From a virus (taxonomy: Duplodnaviria; Heunggongvirae; Uroviricota; Caudoviricetes), in IMG/VR virus record IMGVR_UViG_2872180393_000009: DNA of 9,064 bases; one strand, 5' to 3'. This document shows positions 2,946 through 9,064 of the stretch, one piece after another. Below the pieces are notes generated by a model. The model saw nothing but the letters and a program-made list of their open reading frames with translations. It did not search any database and had not been told where the DNA came from. Position numbers and translations under genes: made by a program. Numbering within the stretch: position 1 is the stretch's first letter; each line of letters begins with the position of its first letter.

Positions 2946-3307
2946 TTGTCGTATGCACGCGCACATCTGAATTATGGTGGGGCGCATGGGGGAGCTGAAA
3001 AGCTCGCCGGTCGGTTTCCCGGTAGTTCCAACCCTGTGCGTCTCACCACCCGATGATTGGAACCTGACGGTGTTGACAGTTTCAGGTTTGCAGTTTACAT
3101 TTCCCCGCGGTGCTCAAAACACCTCGAAAGCGGTATCCACACCCGATAGCCATGTGGTTTTTTTGTGTCCAGAATTCTTGGTTTATGACCGGGTGTGCGG
3201 CTAATACAATACCAGCAATGGAAATACGCCCGCCGACTTTCGACGGTTTTGAGCGCCCGGTCACCCTCTCAAAAGGGGTAAATCAAAATATTCGAAAGGA
3301 CATGTCT

Positions 3308-3871
3308 ATGAATCGCACGTCTATTGAAAAACTCCCGTCACTTACGCATAACCATCTTCCTGTCATGACAACAGAGCTGCTGGCTGATTTGTACGGAACA
3401 GAGCGCCAGCGTTTGACAAACAATTTCAATCGAAACAAAGAACGGTTTATAGAAGGTAAACATTTTTTCCTGATAGAAGGTGATGCGTTACGAGAGTTGA
3501 AGAACGAAAACTCTTTAAGAGTTTCTGTGAAAATTGCCCGTAACGTTCGCTCCCTCATCCTCTGGACAGAACGTGGCGCAGCCCGTCACGCCAAAATGCT
3601 CGAAACCGATCAGGCGTGGGAAGTGTTCGAAAAACTGGAAGACTGTTATTTCAACCAGAAACAGCCACCAGCGGCACAAAACACATCTATCGAAAATGAT
3701 GGATGCGCATTACTGAGCCACTTCGATAAACACGGTCAGGTTGAGTTCACGGAAAAGGTACCCGCCGATGCGATGGTATGTACTCTGGAACGGTTTAAAT
3801 TTTATCTGGAGCAACACGGGTGGATCGTTGCCCGTAAAGAGCAACTGGTGGAGCGGTTGATGCGGTTTTAA
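3308..3871 (+). CDS. ORF6N-domain (antirepressor-like DNA-binding) protein with an uncharacterised C-terminal half
   Basis: ATG at 3308 has AAGGA 7 nt upstream. The N-terminal segment PVMTTELLADLYGTERQRLTNNFNRNKERFIEGKHFF...WTERGAARHAKMLETDQAWEVF fits my recollection of the ORF6N domain consensus. The ORF track's upstream extension from 3110 has no RBS and non-protein-like composition. Confidence 0.6.
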   Translation: MNRTSIEKLPSLTHNHLPVMTTELLADLYGTERQRLTNNFNRNKERFIEGKHFFLIEGDALRELKNENSLRVSVKIARNVRSLILWTERGAARHAKMLETDQAWEVFEKLEDCYFNQKQPPAAQNTSIENDGCALLSHFDKHGQVEFTEKVPADAMVCTLERFKFYLEQHGWIVARKEQLVERLMRF

Positions 3872-3984
3872 AAATTTTTTCCGAAAACTTTACGATCGTA
3901 AAAAGTTGAATATCCTGTTAAGAGTGGTTACTACGCCACACAGAAACGGCACAGGACGTTAAACGTGCTGGTGGTCAGATGAGT

Positions 3985-4013
3985 TTGCAGATGTGATGAC
4001 ATATGGTTATTAT
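3985..4013 (+). promoter_or_regulatory. Candidate sigma70 promoter for the tRNA array (TTGCAG-N17-TATTAT)
   Basis: TTGCAG at 3985-3990 and TATTAT at 4008-4013 with a 17-nt spacer, about 10 nt upstream of the first tRNA 5' end. Confidence 0.35.
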
Positions 4014-4022
4014 TCTGCCTCC

Positions 4023-4099
4023 GGCCCTTTAGCTCAGTTGGTCAGAGCGAGCGACTCATAATCGCCAGGTCGCTGGTTCAAGTCCAGCAAGGGCCACCA
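4023..4099 (+). tRNA. tRNA with CAU anticodon, most likely tRNA-Ile2 (ileX/ileZ-like) rather than tRNA-Met
   Basis: Cloverleaf read by eye: acceptor GGCCCTT/AAGGGCC, D-arm AGCTCAGTTGG, anticodon loop CTCATAA, T-arm GGTTCAAGTCC, 3' CCA encoded. Close to E. coli ileX as I recall it, including C4-G69 and C5-G68. Confidence 0.85.
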
Positions 4100-4100
4100 A

Positions 4101-4177
4101 CCACCACTAGCTCATCCGGATAGAGCATCAACCTTCTAAGTTGACGGTGCGAGGTTCGAGTCCTCGGTGGTGGGCCA
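4101..4177 (+). tRNA. tRNA-Arg (anticodon UCU, decodes AGA)
   Basis: Acceptor CCACCAC/GTGGTGG (unusual C1-G72), D-arm TAGCTCATCCGGATAGAGC, anticodon loop CTTCTAA, T-arm GAGGTTCGAGTCCTC, encoded CCA. Starts 1 nt after the previous tRNA. Confidence 0.8.
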
Positions 4178-4179
4178 GC

Positions 4180-4255
<76 letters not shown>

Positions 4256-4258
4256 TAT

Positions 4259-4333
<75 letters not shown>

Positions 4334-4946
4334 GCGAGATTTGAGACGAAGGTTGTTATTTGCACTGACACAATATTGTGTGGGAATGTCTGACTCCTTA
4401 CCATCTCCTGTTCTGTGATGTTGTTTTGTTGCAGTTCCAGTGCTCTTTTTTCAGCACCAGAATGGTGCATTGTCGGTCAGGTTACGTAGTGAACCTCTGG
4501 CAGGGGACTGATGATTCATCATTCTGGTGTTGTAAATATCTCTTCGGACAACTTACAAAATATTCTAAGCAAACCCCGGGAACACACTCTTAACTGCCTT
4601 GGTTGGCGGTTTTTTGTACAGTGCTCGGTATGTGTGAGCTGGAAATCAGATTTTGCATGGACTGGAATCATGCTGTTATTTAGGGGCGAAGAACTGGCTT
4701 TTTCTTCCGCCTTCTCACCAGTAATGATTAGAAAAATAATGAAATGCCCCCTCCGGGGAGGAGGACCGTAGAAAAAAGGACCCGCCAGCAAAAACATTGG
4801 GGATGAACAGCTTTCGCTACTCAGATTGCTGGCGGGTAAAGTTCCTCATGAATTAAGAATGCTACGCGATCTTTTTTAATGGAAATGAAAATTATTGTCA
4901 ATTAGACGTGCGTGTTTTTTCATACAATATTGGTAAAGGTGATTCA

Positions 4947-4980
4947 GGCCATCAGAGTTTTGCTGATGGCCTTTTTTCTT
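4947..4980 (+). terminator. Strong rho-independent terminator upstream of the holin gene
   Basis: Perfect 9-bp stem GGCCATCAG/CTGATGGCC (4947-4955 / 4963-4971), 7-nt loop, followed by TTTTTTCTT (4972-4980). Confidence 0.6.
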
Positions 4981-5013
4981 TCCGATAGCACAGGTCTGTC
5001 GGGGGGGCGGGAT

Positions 5014-5229
5014 ATGTATCAGATGGAAAAAATATCAACAGGCATTGCCTACGGCACCTCCGCCGGCAGTGCCGGCTACTGGTTTTTGCAGTGGTTGGAT
5101 CAGGTCAGTCCGTCACAGTGGGCTGCGATTGGTGTGCTGGGAAGTCTGCTTCTGGGGCTTCTGACTTATCTGACGAATCTGTATTTCAAAATAAGAGAAG
5201 ATAAGCGTAAGGCTGCGAGAGGTGAATAA
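5014..5229 (+). CDS. S: Class II holin / pinholin, phage 21 S-like, with dual-start motif (Met1 at 5014, Met4 at 5023)
   Basis: 71-aa product [71 protein letters not shown] is near-identical to my recollection of phage 21 S. G-rich Shine-Dalgarno-like stretch upstream; stop overlaps the endolysin start (TAATG). Confidence 0.85.
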
Positions 5230-6831: not shown

Positions 6832-7134
6832 ATGAGCAGAAAAACCCAACGTTACTCTAAAGAGTTCAAAGCCGAAGCTGTCAGAACGGTTCTTGAAAAT
6901 CAACTTTCGATCAGTGAAGGCGCTTCCCGATTATCCCTTCCTGAAGGCACTTTAGGACAATGGGTTACCGCCGCCAGAAAAGGGCTCGGTACTCCTGGTT
7001 CCCGCACGGTGGCTGAACTGGAATCTGAAATTCTGCAACTGCGTAAGGCGTTAAATGAAGCTCGCCTTGAGCGAGATATATTAAAAAAAGCAACAGCGTA
7101 TTTTGCACAGGAGTCGCTGAAAAATACGCGTTAA
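6832..7134 (+). CDS. IS600 OrfA
   Basis: 100-aa ORF MSRKTQRYSKEFKAEAVRTVLENQLSISEGASRLSLPEG..., with an HTH-like N-terminus and a leucine-zipper-like C-terminus typical of IS3-family OrfA. Confidence 0.9.
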   Translation: MSRKTQRYSKEFKAEAVRTVLENQLSISEGASRLSLPEGTLGQWVTAARKGLGTPGSRTVAELESEILQLRKALNEARLERDILKKATAYFAQESLKNTR

Positions 7135-7169: not shown

Positions 7170-7988
7170 ATGTGTCAGGTATTTGGTGTATCCAGGAGCG
7201 GTTATTACAACCGGGTACAGCATGAACCCTCAGACAGAAAACAAAGTGATGAGCGGCTAAAACTGGAGATTAAGGTGGCACATATCCGCACTCGCGAAAC
7301 ATATGGAACCCGGCGGCTCCAGACGGAGCTGGCAGAGAATGGCATCATCGTTGGTCGTGACCGACTGGCACGTCTTCGTAAGGAGCTAAGGCTACGCTGT
7401 AAGCAGAAACGCAAGTTCAGAGCGACTACGAACCCGAACCACAATCTGCCAGTTGCGCCAAATCTGCTGAACCAGACGTTCGCTCCTACAGCACCAAATC
7501 AGGTCTGGGTGGCGGACCTGACGTATGTTGCCACACAGGAGGGATGGTTGTACCTCGCTGGCATCAAAGATGTTTATACGTGCGAAATTGTCGGCTACGC
7601 CATGGGAGAGCGCATGACAAAAGAGCTGACAGGTAAAGCCCTGTTTATGGCGCTCAGGAGCCAGCGCCCACCTGCCGGGCTAATCCACCACTCTGATCGA
7701 GGTTCACAGTACTGCGCATACGATTACCGGGTCATACAGGAGCAGTTTGGTCTGAAAACATCAATGTCGCGTAAAGGTAACTGTTACGACAACGCTCCGA
7801 TGGAAAGCTTCTGGGGAACGCTGAAAAATGAGAGCCTGAGCCACTATCGTTTTAATAACCGGGATGAAGCCATCTCAGTAATACGGGAATACATTGAGAT
7901 TTTCTACAATCGTCAGCGTCGTCACTCTCGTCTGGGGAATATCTCCCCGGCAGCCTTCAGGGAAAAATATCATCAGATGGCTGCTTAA
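7170..7988 (+). CDS. IS600 OrfB (transposase catalytic DDE domain), normally expressed as an OrfAB fusion by -1 frameshifting
   Basis: 272-aa ORF containing DDE-region motifs (WVADLTYV, HHSDRGSQY, CYDNAPMESFWGTLKNE). The orfB frame is open upstream from the A AAA AAA G slippery run at 7083-7090 inside orfA. Confidence 0.9.
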   Translation: MCQVFGVSRSGYYNRVQHEPSDRKQSDERLKLEIKVAHIRTRETYGTRRLQTELAENGIIVGRDRLARLRKELRLRCKQKRKFRATTNPNHNLPVAPNLLNQTFAPTAPNQVWVADLTYVATQEGWLYLAGIKDVYTCEIVGYAMGERMTKELTGKALFMALRSQRPPAGLIHHSDRGSQYCAYDYRVIQEQFGLKTSMSRKGNCYDNAPMESFWGTLKNESLSHYRFNNRDEAISVIREYIEIFYNRQRRHSRLGNISPAAFREKYHQMAA

Positions 7989-8098
7989 AAAAAGAACAAA
8001 TGGTAGTATCCGCTATTGCCAGTACACCTCAAAGGGGTTCATGTATTAAAAGTCGACGGAGTTAAAGAACGTTGGGTCGACTTAATGGAGATTTCAAA

Positions 8099-9064
8099 AT
8101 GGGCAAGAAAGAACAAGGATCATTACCTCTCCCAAGAGGAGTAACTATTCGTCAATACAAGAATTGCTCTACATTAGTTGTAACCTTCACATATAAAGGG
8201 GTTCTTTGCAGAGAACCCTTACCAAGGCTGGAAGCTAACGCAAAGGGGATTAAGTATGCAGAGCGACTTCTCGGAGAAATAAAAAACCAAATCTGTGATG
8301 ATTCATTCGATTTTTCAAAATACTTTCCAAACTCCAGGAAGTTAGCATTATTTGGAATGGTAAAGAAGAATAAAAGTGTGAGAGATTACCTAGATGAATA
8401 TCTGGAAATTTGCAAAAACAGAAAGTTATCTCCTTCAACAATAAATGGATATGAAAAATGCGTATCTGCATTATCGGAACTACATAAGCTACATGTCGTT
8501 GACCTGACACCAGCAATATTAAAAAAATGGATTTCAAGAAGAACAACAAAACTTAAGACCATAAGAAACAATCTGTCATTTTTAAGAAGCGCAGTAGATG
8601 AAGCGGTCACTGACGGACTTATAACGATAAATCCTGTAAAACTGGTTAGTGCAAGTAGATACCATGCGGTTAACCATACAGCCAATGCTGATGATTATGA
8701 AGTGGATCCCTTCACGCCAGCAGAGGCAACAGCTATCTACAACGCCTGTCTCTATCAGGAATGGAGAAATCTTTTTTGTTTCGCATTCAATACAGGCCTT
8801 CGAAGCTCAGAATTATGTGCATTGCGTTGGTCTGATATTGATTTTATTGGGCATACCGTTCACGTACAGGTCGCTTCTGTCGTTGGTGTAATAAAAGGAA
8901 CCAAAACAAAAGCAGGGACCAGAAAAGTTGAATTAAACAATGAAGCCATAATGGCATTGCAGTCCCAGAAATCATTTACGATGATGAGAAGTGATTTTGT
9001 ATTCAGTGATCCAAAAACACGCAAGCCGTGGGCTAATTCAGCTGCGATTCGCAAGAAAGCCTGA
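8099..9064 (+). CDS. int: Tyrosine recombinase / phage integrase, probably C-terminally truncated (likely pseudogene)
   Basis: ATG at 8099 with GGAG 8 nt upstream. N-terminal arm-binding-like segment (LPRGVTIRQY...TFTYKGVLCREPLP), box I arginine (FNTGLRSSELCALRWSDIDF) and the KGTKTKAGTRKVEL hairpin are present. The ORF stops 17 aa after FVFSDP, before the expected HxxR and catalytic Tyr. AT-rich relative to the rest of the window. Confidence 0.7.
   Translation: MGKKEQGSLPLPRGVTIRQYKNCSTLVVTFTYKGVLCREPLPRLEANAKGIKYAERLLGEIKNQICDDSFDFSKYFPNSRKLALFGMVKKNKSVRDYLDEYLEICKNRKLSPSTINGYEKCVSALSELHKLHVVDLTPAILKKWISRRTTKLKTIRNNLSFLRSAVDEAVTDGLITINPVKLVSASRYHAVNHTANADDYEVDPFTPAEATAIYNACLYQEWRNLFCFAFNTGLRSSELCALRWSDIDFIGHTVHVQVASVVGVIKGTKTKAGTRKVELNNEAIMALQSQKSFTMMRSDFVFSDPKTRKPWANSAAIRKKA

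Follow-up and report, generated by a model that had tools for sequence, protein, structure and literature searches.

The interval between Q and the lysis genes is an established source of small RNAs in prophages of pathogenic E. coli, where AgvB, AsxR, Esr41 and the Pas RNAs rewire host regulation. The catalogue of these RNAs rests on few strains of EHEC and EPEC. Structured RNAs are also known around tRNA genes and phage transcripts: 3'ETS-leuZ is the 3' external transcribed spacer RNA of a tRNA operon, lambda sib and T7 R1.1 are RNase III processing hairpins, and ROOL and GOLLD are large phage RNAs adjacent to tRNA genes. Tree et al. 2014 (PMC4104026) described convergent pairs of Hfq-bound sRNAs (AgvB, AsxR and their partners) at the moron site of lambdoid prophages, 3' of PR'. 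PasA and PasC directly adjoin the holin/lysozyme operon (bioRxiv 10.64898/2026.05.13.724894).

We analyzed the spacer between the tRNA array and the holin gene in a 9,064-nt stretch of Caudoviricetes DNA, hereafter the window. In our assessment the spacer is probably a mosaic of two conserved non-coding modules, filling the moron slot of a degraded lambdoid prophage, between Q and its lysis genes. The full 647 bp are present in only nine E. coli genomes, and RefSeq leaves the spacer of these near-identical genomes without annotation. Positions 4633-4980 recur at ~85-87% identity in ~1,500 records, whereas positions 4350-4618 recur at 68-78% identity in 218 genomes, with other holin types or terB downstream. 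This difference in distribution indicates two modules with separate histories, designated module A and module B (Table 1). The same spacer is also found in apparently intact phages, the phi80 prophage and vB_EcoS-683R6. Both modules are absent upstream of essD and essQ in the K-12 prophages DLP12 and Qin, where no similarity is detected. The prophage of the window is itself degraded and rich in IS elements.

Table 1. Features of the spacer and its flanks, in window coordinates
Feature	Positions	Strand	Basis
Predicted sigma-70 promoter of the tRNA cassette, TTGCAG-17-TATTAT	3985-4013	+	Pattern scan
tRNA array: CAU, Arg-UCU, Thr-UGU, Gly-UCC	4023-4333	+	ARAGORN, Rfam tRNA matches, RefSeq annotation of relative L001
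Module A, conserved structured trailer RNA of the tRNA cassette	4334-4615	+	Synteny, covariance model
Module A domain 1, closing helix GCACUG (4362-4367)/CAGUGC (4438-4443)	4362-4443	+	RNAalifold on A6
Module A long hairpin, 28 pairs and a 6-bp apical helix, G-U-rich	4448-4536	+	Inverted-repeat search, folding
Terminator T1, Rho-independent, ends the tRNA/module A unit	4592-4615	+	Scan, folding
Module B, conserved 'holin-upstream' module	4633-4985		Homology; starts at 4633 in the 87% relatives
CCTCC/GGAGG hairpin, doubtful significance	4747-4764		Folding
Candidate antisense sRNA, ~97 nt	4768-4866	-	Start predicted at 4865-4867, 3' end ~4770
Candidate sRNA terminator	4772-4837	-	12-bp stem 4837-4826/4791-4780, U-tract 4777-4772
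Candidate sRNA predicted promoter	4873-4901	-	-35 TTGACA (4901-4896), 17-nt spacer, -10 TAAAAA (4878-4873)
Terminator T2, Rho-independent, lysis-cassette leader	4946-4980	+	Scan, inverted-repeat search, folding
Class II (P21 S-type) holin, MYQM dual start	5014-5229	+	Pfam PF04971, E 1.5e-35; RefSeq annotation of relatives

The spacer has no detectable coding signal. A first-pass annotation had seen no convincing ORF, and this is borne out across 4334-5013, which holds no credible gene. The longest ORFs (92, 86, 71 and 61 aa) lie in differing frames, and the spacer ORFs have no matches in Pfam or PHROG. In alignments of the relatives, most internal gap runs are not multiples of three (94 of 99 in module A and 94 of 128 in module B), and no 3-base periodicity of substitutions is found. 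Three kinds of ORF could be taken for unannotated small proteins: a RefSeq ORF of 63 aa, annotated as a 'hypothetical protein' within module B of the relative L002 (5166-5357), ORFs deposited in GenBank on the minus strand of phage 683R6, and the window ORFs of 61-92 aa, including a possible peptide from module A. The annotated ORFs, however, are not preserved between lineages and the ORF starts have no Shine-Dalgarno sequence; together with the indel pattern, the absent periodicity and the lack of family matches, this makes a protein-coding role scarcely credible.

The first-pass annotation had likened the region to a promoter-cargo-terminator moron unit whose cargo is missing, decayed or a non-coding RNA; the last option fits our results and the first two do not. 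The slot does receive cargo elsewhere: the Q-holin interval of relatives holds genes for an esterase, TerB, IraM or a methyltransferase, and SerU-LTIIb carries LT-IIb after its lysis genes. These observations, and the degraded, IS-rich state of the prophage, would suit a remnant of a deleted or degenerate toxin or cargo gene. A tblastn search with 5,420 ORF translations from 74 related loci, a query set that took in loci with cargo in this slot, nevertheless recovered homologous non-coding DNA only, and no remnants of the esterase, TerB, methyltransferase or IraM. Both modules show RNA-type substitution patterns, are conserved across hundreds to thousands of genomes and lack Pfam and PHROG matches; the presence of the spacer in apparently intact phages likewise speaks against decay. 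An emptied moron is thus a very improbable explanation.

What the proposed promoter-cargo-terminator arrangement got right is a promoter-like site (3985-4013) and a terminator belonging to the unit, the latter lying at 4592-4615 and not at 4947-4980. These two predicted elements bracket the tRNAs and module A. The plus-strand terminator (4592-4611 plus a T-run) had been overlooked, as had an imperfect inverted repeat at 4448-4478/4506-4536. The hexamers and spacing of the promoter-like site are kept in four upstream contexts (the window, L009, L010 and L313) while the sequence between the hexamers differs, and the predicted start lies ~2 nt 5' of the first tRNA; it may well function as the promoter of the cassette. 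That first tRNA, with anticodon CAU, is Met by anticodon and is annotated as Ile in relatives. The tRNA/module A cassette is found with various Q genes, holin types and neighbours. Like a moron, it is present or absent at the same place among related phages; its cargo is not protein-coding and consists of tRNAs and a structured RNA. An autonomous cassette would thus run from the predicted promoter through four tRNAs and a ~280-nt RNA to T1.

Module A extends from the nucleotide after tRNA-Gly (last position 4333) to T1. Its carriers are phi80-like and other lambdoid phages and prophages, represented by 218 E. coli genomes and >100 viral contigs; at 96% identity the module falls into 35 clusters. 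Eight tRNA-bearing relatives were checked, the phi80 prophage of DH5alpha among them, and in each of them tRNA-Thr and tRNA-Gly precede the module. A covariance model of module A scores 94.8 bits on the plus strand and 30.6 on the minus strand, and has no match in L002 or in the PP2 and PP4 prophages of E2348/69. Module A itself has no match in Rfam. The Rfam scan suggested in the first-pass annotation returned no family match in the spacer: at thresholds of E <= 1 for the window and E <= 10 for the spacer, only generic terminator- or hairpin-like noise appears in 4334-5013.

The structure of module A is specific to the plus strand. Its closing helix in domain 1 is invariant and the small hairpins inside it covary; in one of them (columns 65-83 of A3), four of the five pairs display changes on both sides. 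The 31-nt arms of the imperfect inverted repeat form the long hairpin, which folds with -40.4 kcal/mol (z -4.4) on the plus strand and -23.2 kcal/mol (z -1.75) on the minus strand. Its pairing is maintained in 97.7% of cells across 28 sequences, with 9 of the 28 pairs in the long helix never varying. Across the whole structure of 45 pairs, 96.5% of pair cells are kept in 28 variants, as against 77% when the pairs are read on the minus strand; 262 of the cells are G-U, which is equivalent to A-C on the other strand. Controls with the pairing slid along the alignment yield 32-57% paired cells. None of 500 shuffles match module A in paired cells, covariation score or both-side changes, a control that leaves relatedness in, so part of the signal could be shared ancestry. 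The T1 hairpin (-10.7 kcal/mol, z -3.2) keeps its stem and varies in the loop among 12 type-1 relatives. Inverted repeats in the spacer might instead act at the DNA level, for example as palindromes bound by proteins or as sites of recombination, and the palindrome ATGCAT in the module A arms, the perfect 12-bp arms of a repeat in module B and a recombination breakpoint near 4765 are compatible with this. The strand asymmetry and the G-U cells of module A are unexpected for a DNA palindrome, however, and the 34-nt spacing and adjacent T-run of the module B repeat fit a terminator, leaving the DNA-level explanation with very little probability.

Module A comprises a closed 5' domain, an interrupted hairpin of ~34 bp, an A-rich single-stranded stretch and a Rho-independent terminator. 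The long hairpin would serve for processing or for stability; its length fits an RNase III substrate, a stem of ~20 bp or more being provided by its 28 pairs and 6 apical pairs. The 3' piece, with the terminator hairpin and U-tail at its end, could persist as an sRNA in the manner of the 3' external transcribed spacers of tRNA operons in the host. RNase III cleavage and the release of an sRNA are guesses on our part.

Of 5,426 E. coli genomes, ~1,430 have module B, placed immediately 5' of a P21-type holin or its remnant; ColV-type plasmids are among the carriers. The module comprises five lineages, confined to E. coli and Shigella: it is absent upstream of P21-type holins in other genera, and the same five were all that came from two viral-contig scans, one scan of metagenomes and 62 loci with P21 holins in other species. 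An inverted repeat reported in the first-pass annotation as 10 bp is real and longer, with 12 perfect bp (4780-4791/4826-4837) and a loop of 34 nt. Perfect inverted repeats of at least 12 bp occur in none of 300 dinucleotide shuffles, and those of at least 10 bp in eight. The repeat folds with -31.6 kcal/mol (z -4.1) on the minus strand and -28.3 kcal/mol (z -2.7) on the plus strand. Only on the minus strand does the hairpin have a T-run behind it, which in the window lineage is separated from the stem by 2 nt (CC). Within the loop, an inner hairpin of 8 bp with a GAAA loop (4823-4804) includes two G-U pairs on the minus strand, which are mismatches on the plus strand. The inverted repeat reads best as the terminator of a candidate sRNA on the opposite strand. 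A CCTCC/GGAGG element that had also been pointed out is present, yet its fold equals that of shuffles (z ~0 on the plus strand and -0.6 on the minus strand), and the lineages disagree over the strand that keeps the pairing.

The candidate sRNA body is the best-conserved segment of module B, with a mean pairwise identity of 0.90 versus 0.74-0.85 elsewhere, and its 5' region is conserved as CAUUCUUA(U/A)UUCAUGA. The hexamers and spacing of its predicted promoter are kept in three aligned lineages while the sequence between them varies, and none of the module B lineages has an indel between the hexamers. The -10 box lacks a conserved final T, and a simple promoter scanner missed it. In the relative L357, a recombination breakpoint (4765-4768) coincides with the predicted 3' end of the sRNA. 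Remnants without a holin, on ColV-type plasmids and a pap-linked island, still keep the body, and T2 decays in them. Covariation lends no support to the antisense sRNA among the five lineages, which are closely related; of two informative stem substitutions, the one in the plasmid lineage favours the plus strand (G-U there, A-C on the minus strand) and the one in L073 favours the minus strand. Two plus-strand promoter candidates in module B were rejected: TTCTCA-17-AATAAT (4712-4740), inside which relatives have 3-nt and 10-nt indels, and TTGTCA...TACAAT near 4895-4928, with a spacing of 22 nt and a -10 box that is not conserved. The expression of the candidate, its Hfq binding and its targets we infer. 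Against the mRNAs of the window, the sole complementarity is to 11 nt of the isrK hairpin, within chance expectation. The antisense sRNA would probably act in trans on host or prophage mRNAs, and may damp read-through in cis.

A strong terminator just before the holin gene had been noted previously and is confirmed here: a perfect 10-bp stem (4946-4955/4963-4972) with a 7-nt loop and a T-run at 4972-4977, folding with -18.2 kcal/mol (z = -3.8). The holin ATG (5014) follows 41 nt after the end of this hairpin. Plus-strand terminators 38-53 nt before the ATG are found in 16 of 57 P21-type holin loci from other species, and terminators within 120 nt in 28 of 57. Because a plus-strand terminator recurs before P21-type holins, T2 is part of the holin/lysis cassette. 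Homologues with changed stem pairs occur in E2348/69 PP2 and PP4 and in L010, whereas T2 is decayed in the holin-less L004 and L011. Module B would thus carry an opposite-strand small-RNA gene together with T2 directly 5' of the holin. T1 and T2 on the plus strand, and the 4837-4780 repeat with its U-tract on the minus strand, have the form of Rho-independent terminators. T1 and T2 would halt any transcription that Q has not made terminator-resistant, and we propose that the lysis genes are thereby kept silent in the lysogen.

Several of these observations are also at home in an ordinary late-operon leader, in which every hairpin acts in cis on the plus-strand late transcript (to process it, to stabilise the mRNA or to terminate as a Q checkpoint), with no independent RNA gene and no Q-independent expression. 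The region sits between Q and the lysis genes, in their orientation; module A is structured on the plus strand, where the 12-bp inverted repeat folds as well; the stem change in the plasmid lineage gives G-U on that strand, the CCTCC hairpin has left-arm changes in the 87% lineage that preserve its pairing there only, and T2 is widespread among holin leaders. A leader does not account for the minus strand, which alone has the consensus -35 box, the fixed 17-nt spacing and the post-hairpin T-run, nor for the retention of the sRNA body on plasmids and islands whose remnants are without the holin and have a decaying plus-strand terminator. Furthermore, the equivalent place in E2348/69 is taken by an experimentally validated antisense sRNA, and the tRNA cassette has a conserved promoter-like site and a terminator of its own. 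We therefore consider a plain leader unlikely and retain the reading of two non-coding modules.

A more far-reaching proposal is that module A represents an undescribed family of structured phage RNA with a role beyond transcript processing, and that the antisense RNA of module B is a new host-beneficial sRNA. We advance this tentatively, as possible and somewhat short of probable. The module A family would then comprise RNAs of ~260-280 nt with two alternative 3' domains, inherited en bloc with the tRNA-Thr/tRNA-Gly cassette. Its members could be, for example, RNase III-generated regulatory RNAs or sponges in lysogens, or could act with the phage tRNAs in conflicts with nucleases of the host or of rival phages. 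The module B RNA would be one that outlasts the lysis genes on ColV virulence plasmids and pap-linked islands.

If real, the antisense sRNA adds a lineage present in approximately a quarter of complete E. coli genomes, carried by ExPEC chromosomes, Shigella and, next to iss, ColV-type virulence plasmids, and module A adds a strongly structured RNA tied to a phage tRNA cassette. The laboratory strain DH5alpha has module A too, in its phi80 prophage, so the RNA is easy to test. More generally, 'empty' spacers in moron slots, and the 'hypothetical proteins' annotated across them, are better read as RNA genes and Q-checkpoint terminators. Both modules belong to a known kind of prophage feature, and these two versions of it appear undescribed. 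String searches of the literature found no paper for the RNA sequences or for the element at 3889-3945.

Among described systems, 3'ETS-leuZ is matched by module A in position, after the last tRNA and ending at the operon terminator, and in the A-rich single-stranded stretch before that terminator; module A differs in being much longer (~280 nt), highly structured and phage-borne. Like lambda sib and T7 R1.1, it has a double-stranded stem that is long and irregular and exceeds two helical turns. As with ROOL and GOLLD, it is a structured RNA genetically linked to phage tRNA genes, but it is far smaller and matches neither of them nor any other family in Rfam. Lambda tR'/6S RNA and StxS are known for terminated PR' transcripts and for terminators that Q reads through; T1 and T2 resemble them as strong intrinsic terminators that lie between the late promoter region and the lysis genes and need Q read-through. 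A difference is the placement of T2: the holin start is 41 nt away, and the nearest candidate late-promoter element ~1 kb.

The RNA ending at T1 and the candidate sRNA would be convergent, and the locus resembles the AgvB/AsxR pairs in having facing RNA units in the Q-to-lysis interval (predicted ends at 4615 on the plus strand and near 4770 on the minus strand), with the antisense member directed against the late operon. The AgvB/AsxR sRNAs are 51-60 nt long and have a conserved 3' region, whereas the sense partner in the window is a 280-nt tRNA trailer, and the AgvB and AsxR models (RF02702, RF02703) have no match in the window. Esr41 (RF02676, gathering threshold 102 bits) has no match in 4330-5015 even at E <= 10, and the PP4 element of E2348/69 scores only 32 bits against it. 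STnc100/PasD (RF02076, gathering threshold 47 bits), an sRNA of the same interval that has a terminator and lies on the sense strand, likewise has no match in the window at E <= 10. The 87% relative L002 has a match of 114.5 bits immediately 5' of its module B, where the window has the end of module A; L010 has both module A and STnc100 as separate elements.

[quoted passage not shown] By blastn and Rfam models, no similarity to PasA, PasC, PasD, Esr41, STnc100, AgvB or AsxR is found in the spacer, and blastn against PasA and PasC of E2348/69, the similarity that defines the family, gives nothing significant. The one sequence in common is GCCAGC, a motif that PasA, PasC, the PP4 element and the window each carry within a terminator stem. 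The window RNA also has a longer (12-bp) terminator stem with an inner GNRA hairpin, and its lineage is that of ExPEC, Shigella and ColV plasmids rather than EPEC/EHEC. The architecture of the locus, by contrast, is common to both. PasA, PasC and the candidate are located between cargo and a P21-type holin in lambdoid prophages, adjoining the holin/lysozyme operon: the candidate gene (4768-4901) has its -35 box 113 nt and its 3' end 246 nt upstream of the holin ATG. The candidate is predicted to share with them a length of about 80-100 nt and transcription opposite to the late genes, its promoter and T-run being on the minus strand only. Its 3' end has the PasA-type stem-loop followed by poly-U (the 12-bp stem and UCCUUUUUU on the minus strand). 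A TTGACA box occupies the same relative place in the candidate and in PasA/PasC; E2348/69 PP2 and PP4 both have this box, and in PP2 the published 5' end of PasA is exactly 7 nt past TTGACA-17-TCAGAA. Although the candidate sRNA is not a member of the PasA family by sequence, its predicted layout matches that of the experimentally validated PasA.

The stretch is a degraded lambdoid prophage broken up by IS3-family copies, and its recognized genes and RNAs are listed in the table. The four Rfam RNAs and the ORF6N gene, which separate the Q gene from the tRNA cassette, form a module like P1 immI and the isrK-anrP region of Gifsy-1; a promoter-like site (2832-2861) lies directly 3' of the Q stop codon. 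ARAGORN calls the first tRNA (4023-4099) as Met with anticodon CAT; in relatives this gene carries the RefSeq annotation tRNA-Ile, which would imply a lysidine-modified Ile2-type tRNA. The holin begins with MYQM (5014-5025), its two Met codons three codons apart, the dual-start holin/antiholin arrangement known from S21. An IS3-family element occurs in inverted copies (1-303 on the minus strand versus 6832-7134 and 7170-7988 on the plus strand): the left-edge orfA copy points the other way from the complete copy, which interrupts the packaging region of the phage past the HNH gene and is followed on its 3' side by a low-G+C integrase gene (8072-9064).

Annotated features of the prophage stretch
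Feature	Position	Basis or remark
DnaB-like helicase gene, rusA	left part of window, before Q	
Q antiterminator gene	2432-2827	Pfam Phage_antitermQ family
P1 immI-like block	between Q gene and tRNA cassette	Rfam RNAs and ORF6N anti-repressor gene
c4-a1b1	2855-2907	Rfam, above gathering score
isrK	2868-2944	Rfam, above gathering score
C4 antisense RNA	2970-3053	Rfam, above gathering score
sRNA-Xcc1	3187-3270	Rfam, above gathering score
ORF6N anti-repressor gene	3305-3871	after the four Rfam RNAs
tRNA genes (four)	4023-4333	
Holin gene, P21 S-type	5014-5229	followed by lysozyme, Rz and HNH genes

The spacer between the tRNA genes and the holin (4334-5013) is near-identical in Shigella flexneri and nine complete E. 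coli genomes. BLAST searches show that 4334-4980 (647 bp) is rare as a whole, while the two halves are each far more widespread, separately. The holin-proximal half, module B (4633-4980), is found at 85-87% identity in ~1,500 records, which come from 1,431 of 5,426 E. coli genomes, always immediately upstream of a class II holin or its remains; ~640 conjugative plasmids carry it adjoining iss, and an island carries it adjoining pap genes. The tRNA-proximal half, module A (4350-4618), is found in 218 genomes at 68-78% identity, directly 3' of a tRNA-Thr/tRNA-Gly pair and followed by another holin type or terB, as well as in phages SerU-LTIIb and vB_EcoS-683R6 and the phi80 prophage of DH5alpha. 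Two viral contigs (L021, L022) each have the tRNA-to-holin spacer twice, with one copy that begins at window position 4468 or 4347, which suggests tandem or recombined prophages.

The first-pass annotation saw no convincing ORF in this spacer and proposed a promoter-cargo-terminator moron whose cargo is missing, decayed or a non-coding RNA. The spacer indeed holds only overlapping ORFs of 61-92 aa in several frames, without Pfam or PHROG relatives. In the relatives' alignments of both modules, by far most internal gaps have lengths not divisible by three, and the three codon positions share the variable columns evenly. Missing or decayed protein cargo finds no support in tblastn: 5,420 stop-to-stop translations from 74 related loci, including those with esterase, TerB, IraM and methyltransferase genes in this slot, matched only as translated homologous non-coding DNA. 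'Hypothetical protein' annotations overlie the modules in some records and are not kept between lineages. Such coding sequences lie over module B in an 87% relative (L002, 5166-5357) and on the minus strand of vB_EcoS-683R6 (4090-4407 and 4515-4640, the first of which begins where the module A core has its 3' edge); as ORFs they lack conservation, and they are probably mis-annotations. The suggestion of a non-coding RNA, by contrast, is supported by the conserved non-coding modules, the structure of module A and a candidate sRNA in module B.

A degenerate 19-mer scan of viral contigs yielded more than 100 module A loci, in 35 clusters at 96% identity. RNAalifold on 28 representatives predicts five helices with 45 pairs, the largest being a 28-pair helix topped by a 6-pair helix. 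Standard pairs fill 96.5% of the pair cells, against 32-57% when the partners are slid by 1-3 columns, and in ten pairs both partners have changed; none of 500 shuffles came up to the real alignment in pairing, in covariation score or in number of double changes. Read on the opposite strand, the pairing falls to 77%, because 262 cells are G-U. The covariance model likewise scores 94.8 bits on the plus and 30.6 bits on the minus strand of the window, and the long hairpin folds at -40.4 kcal/mol (z -4.4) and -23.2 kcal/mol (z -1.75), respectively. Two elements of this structure had escaped the first pass: a 31-nt imperfect inverted repeat (4448-4478/4506-4536) and a second plus-strand terminator, T1 (4592-4611 with a T-run). 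In type 1 copies (12 relatives), the 5' end is an invariant GCACUG/CAGUGC closing helix (4362-4367/4438-4443), followed by the long hairpin (4448-4536), a conserved A-rich single-stranded stretch and a terminator with constant stem and variable loop. In the other relatives the 3' domain is replaced by a different structured segment without a terminator. A search of Rfam returned no family matching module A, and a literature text search with its sequence found no paper containing it; module A is a well-supported structured RNA family, apparently undescribed.

tRNA-Thr(UGU)-tRNA-Gly(UCC) precedes module A in all eight tRNA-bearing loci checked, and a sigma-70-like promoter (TTGCAx-17-TATTAT) immediately 5' of the first tRNA is kept in four otherwise unrelated upstream contexts. 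Judged from sequence, the run from the promoter through the tRNAs and module A to T1 looks like a single autonomous unit. The moron idea survives to this extent, with tRNAs and RNA as the cargo and the boundary at 4615. In size, the module A hairpin would suit RNase III and may be a substrate of it; the 3' part of the RNA looks like an sRNA anchored by a terminator, similar to those from 3' external transcribed spacers. Whatever is said here of expression, processing and targets of the spacer RNAs, we infer.

The strong terminator noted before the holin (T2) is present, with a 10-bp perfect stem (4946-4955/4963-4972) and a T-run (-18.2 kcal/mol, z -3.8). It had been taken for the end of the moron, but it accompanies the holin and is part of the holin leader: T2 is alignable in divergent P21-type holin cassettes, and among 57 P21-type loci from different Enterobacteriaceae species, 28 have a plus-strand terminator within 120 nt of the ATG, 16 of them at 38-53 nt. 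The most economical reading of T2 is a checkpoint passed only by Q-modified polymerase. Farther upstream, ~57 nt (3889-3945) share ~88% identity with an element of K-12 DLP12 (L346, 4696-4755) that lies 145-200 nt 5' of essD; this prophage has a Q of the same family and a terminator right after the element. A 15-mer of it recurs in 30 loci, often just 5' of the tRNA cassette and including several module A loci; a scan called no canonical sigma-70 hexamers in either the DLP12 or the window copy. The element may be where this Q family has its late promoter/qut region.

Module B is represented by only five lineages (the window type, 87% chromosomal, plasmid, second chromosomal and island); covariation is therefore not assessable, and an sRNA gene is argued from other evidence. 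The inverted repeat first described as 10 bp is in fact 12 perfect bp (4780-4791/4826-4837), a length reached by 0 of 300 shuffles; the CCTCC/GGAGG hairpin noted beside it exists, with a fold no more stable than that of shuffled sequence. Only on the minus strand does a T-run come after the 12-bp hairpin; there the loop contains an inner hairpin of 8 bp, capped by GAAA, whose two G-U pairs are mismatches on the plus strand. The region folds at -31.6 kcal/mol (z -4.1) on the minus versus -28.3 kcal/mol (z -2.7) on the plus strand. The candidate minus-strand promoter has a consensus -35 box (TTGACA, 4901-4896) and a -10-like TAAAAA (4878-4873), with the 17-nt spacing fixed in all module B lineages and the spacer sequence variable. 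The segment from the predicted start to the U-tract (4768-4866) is the best conserved in module B (mean pairwise identity 0.90 versus 0.74-0.85 elsewhere), and one metagenomic copy has its breakpoint at the predicted 3' end (4765-4768). In holin-less plasmid and island remnants (L004, ColV-type, 4001-4343; L011, by pap genes, 3001-3344) T2 is decayed (-10.5 and -8.3 versus -17.3 kcal/mol), and the sRNA body is not. Together, these sequence features favour a minus-strand sRNA gene. The ~640 conjugative plasmids with module B adjoining iss likewise retain it in the absence of any holin, and the holin-less copy in L011 lies in a chromosomal island flanked by IS elements. An 11-nt sequence, CGCCAGCAAAA, is common to the isrK 5' hairpin (2869-2879) and the left arm of the inverted repeat (4783-4793), with ~0.4 matches expected by chance.

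Lambdoid prophages carry convergent Hfq-bound sRNA pairs in the moron site, 3' of PR' (PMC4104026), and PasA and PasC directly adjoin the holin/lysozyme operon and are transcribed against the flanking genes (PMC8550237 table S6; bioRxiv 10.64898/2026.05.13.724894). The window candidate was not placed with PasA/PasC by blastn, nor the spacer with Esr41, STnc100 or AgvB/AsxR by Rfam; we liken the element to validated prophage sRNAs, yet it is not classifiable with them. The 87% relative has an STnc100 sRNA (114.5 bits) just upstream of module B, where the window has the end of module A. E2348/69 PP4 has, between PasD1 and the holin, an antisense element (L008, 3113-3202, minus strand) to which a TTGACA box and a GCCAGCGCAGA terminator belong; it matches Esr41 weakly (32 bits, below the gathering score of 102). 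The Pas loci used for comparison, taken from E2348/69, differ from the window in sequence but share its layout: upstream of the holin, PP2 and PP4 have a plus-strand homologue of T2 whose stem pairs have changed, the box TTGTCAA, which reads TTGACA on the other strand, and a minus-strand terminator that, as in the window, has GCCAGC in its stem. In PP2 (L006, 3500-3535) the published PasA 5' end is exactly the 7th nt past TTGACA-17-TCAGAA, which serves to calibrate the promoter prediction for the window and predicts a start at 4865-4867 there; since the published end equals the predicted start, it also suggests that PasA, 85 nt long, may itself be a primary transcript and not one trimmed by processing. 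The likeliest role of the inverted repeat, in which we have moderate confidence, is to terminate an antisense sRNA analogous to PasA. Given the layout shared with the PasA/PasC loci, the predicted plus-strand RNA, with its end at 4615, and the predicted minus-strand RNA, with its end near 4770, would make a convergent pair like those published.
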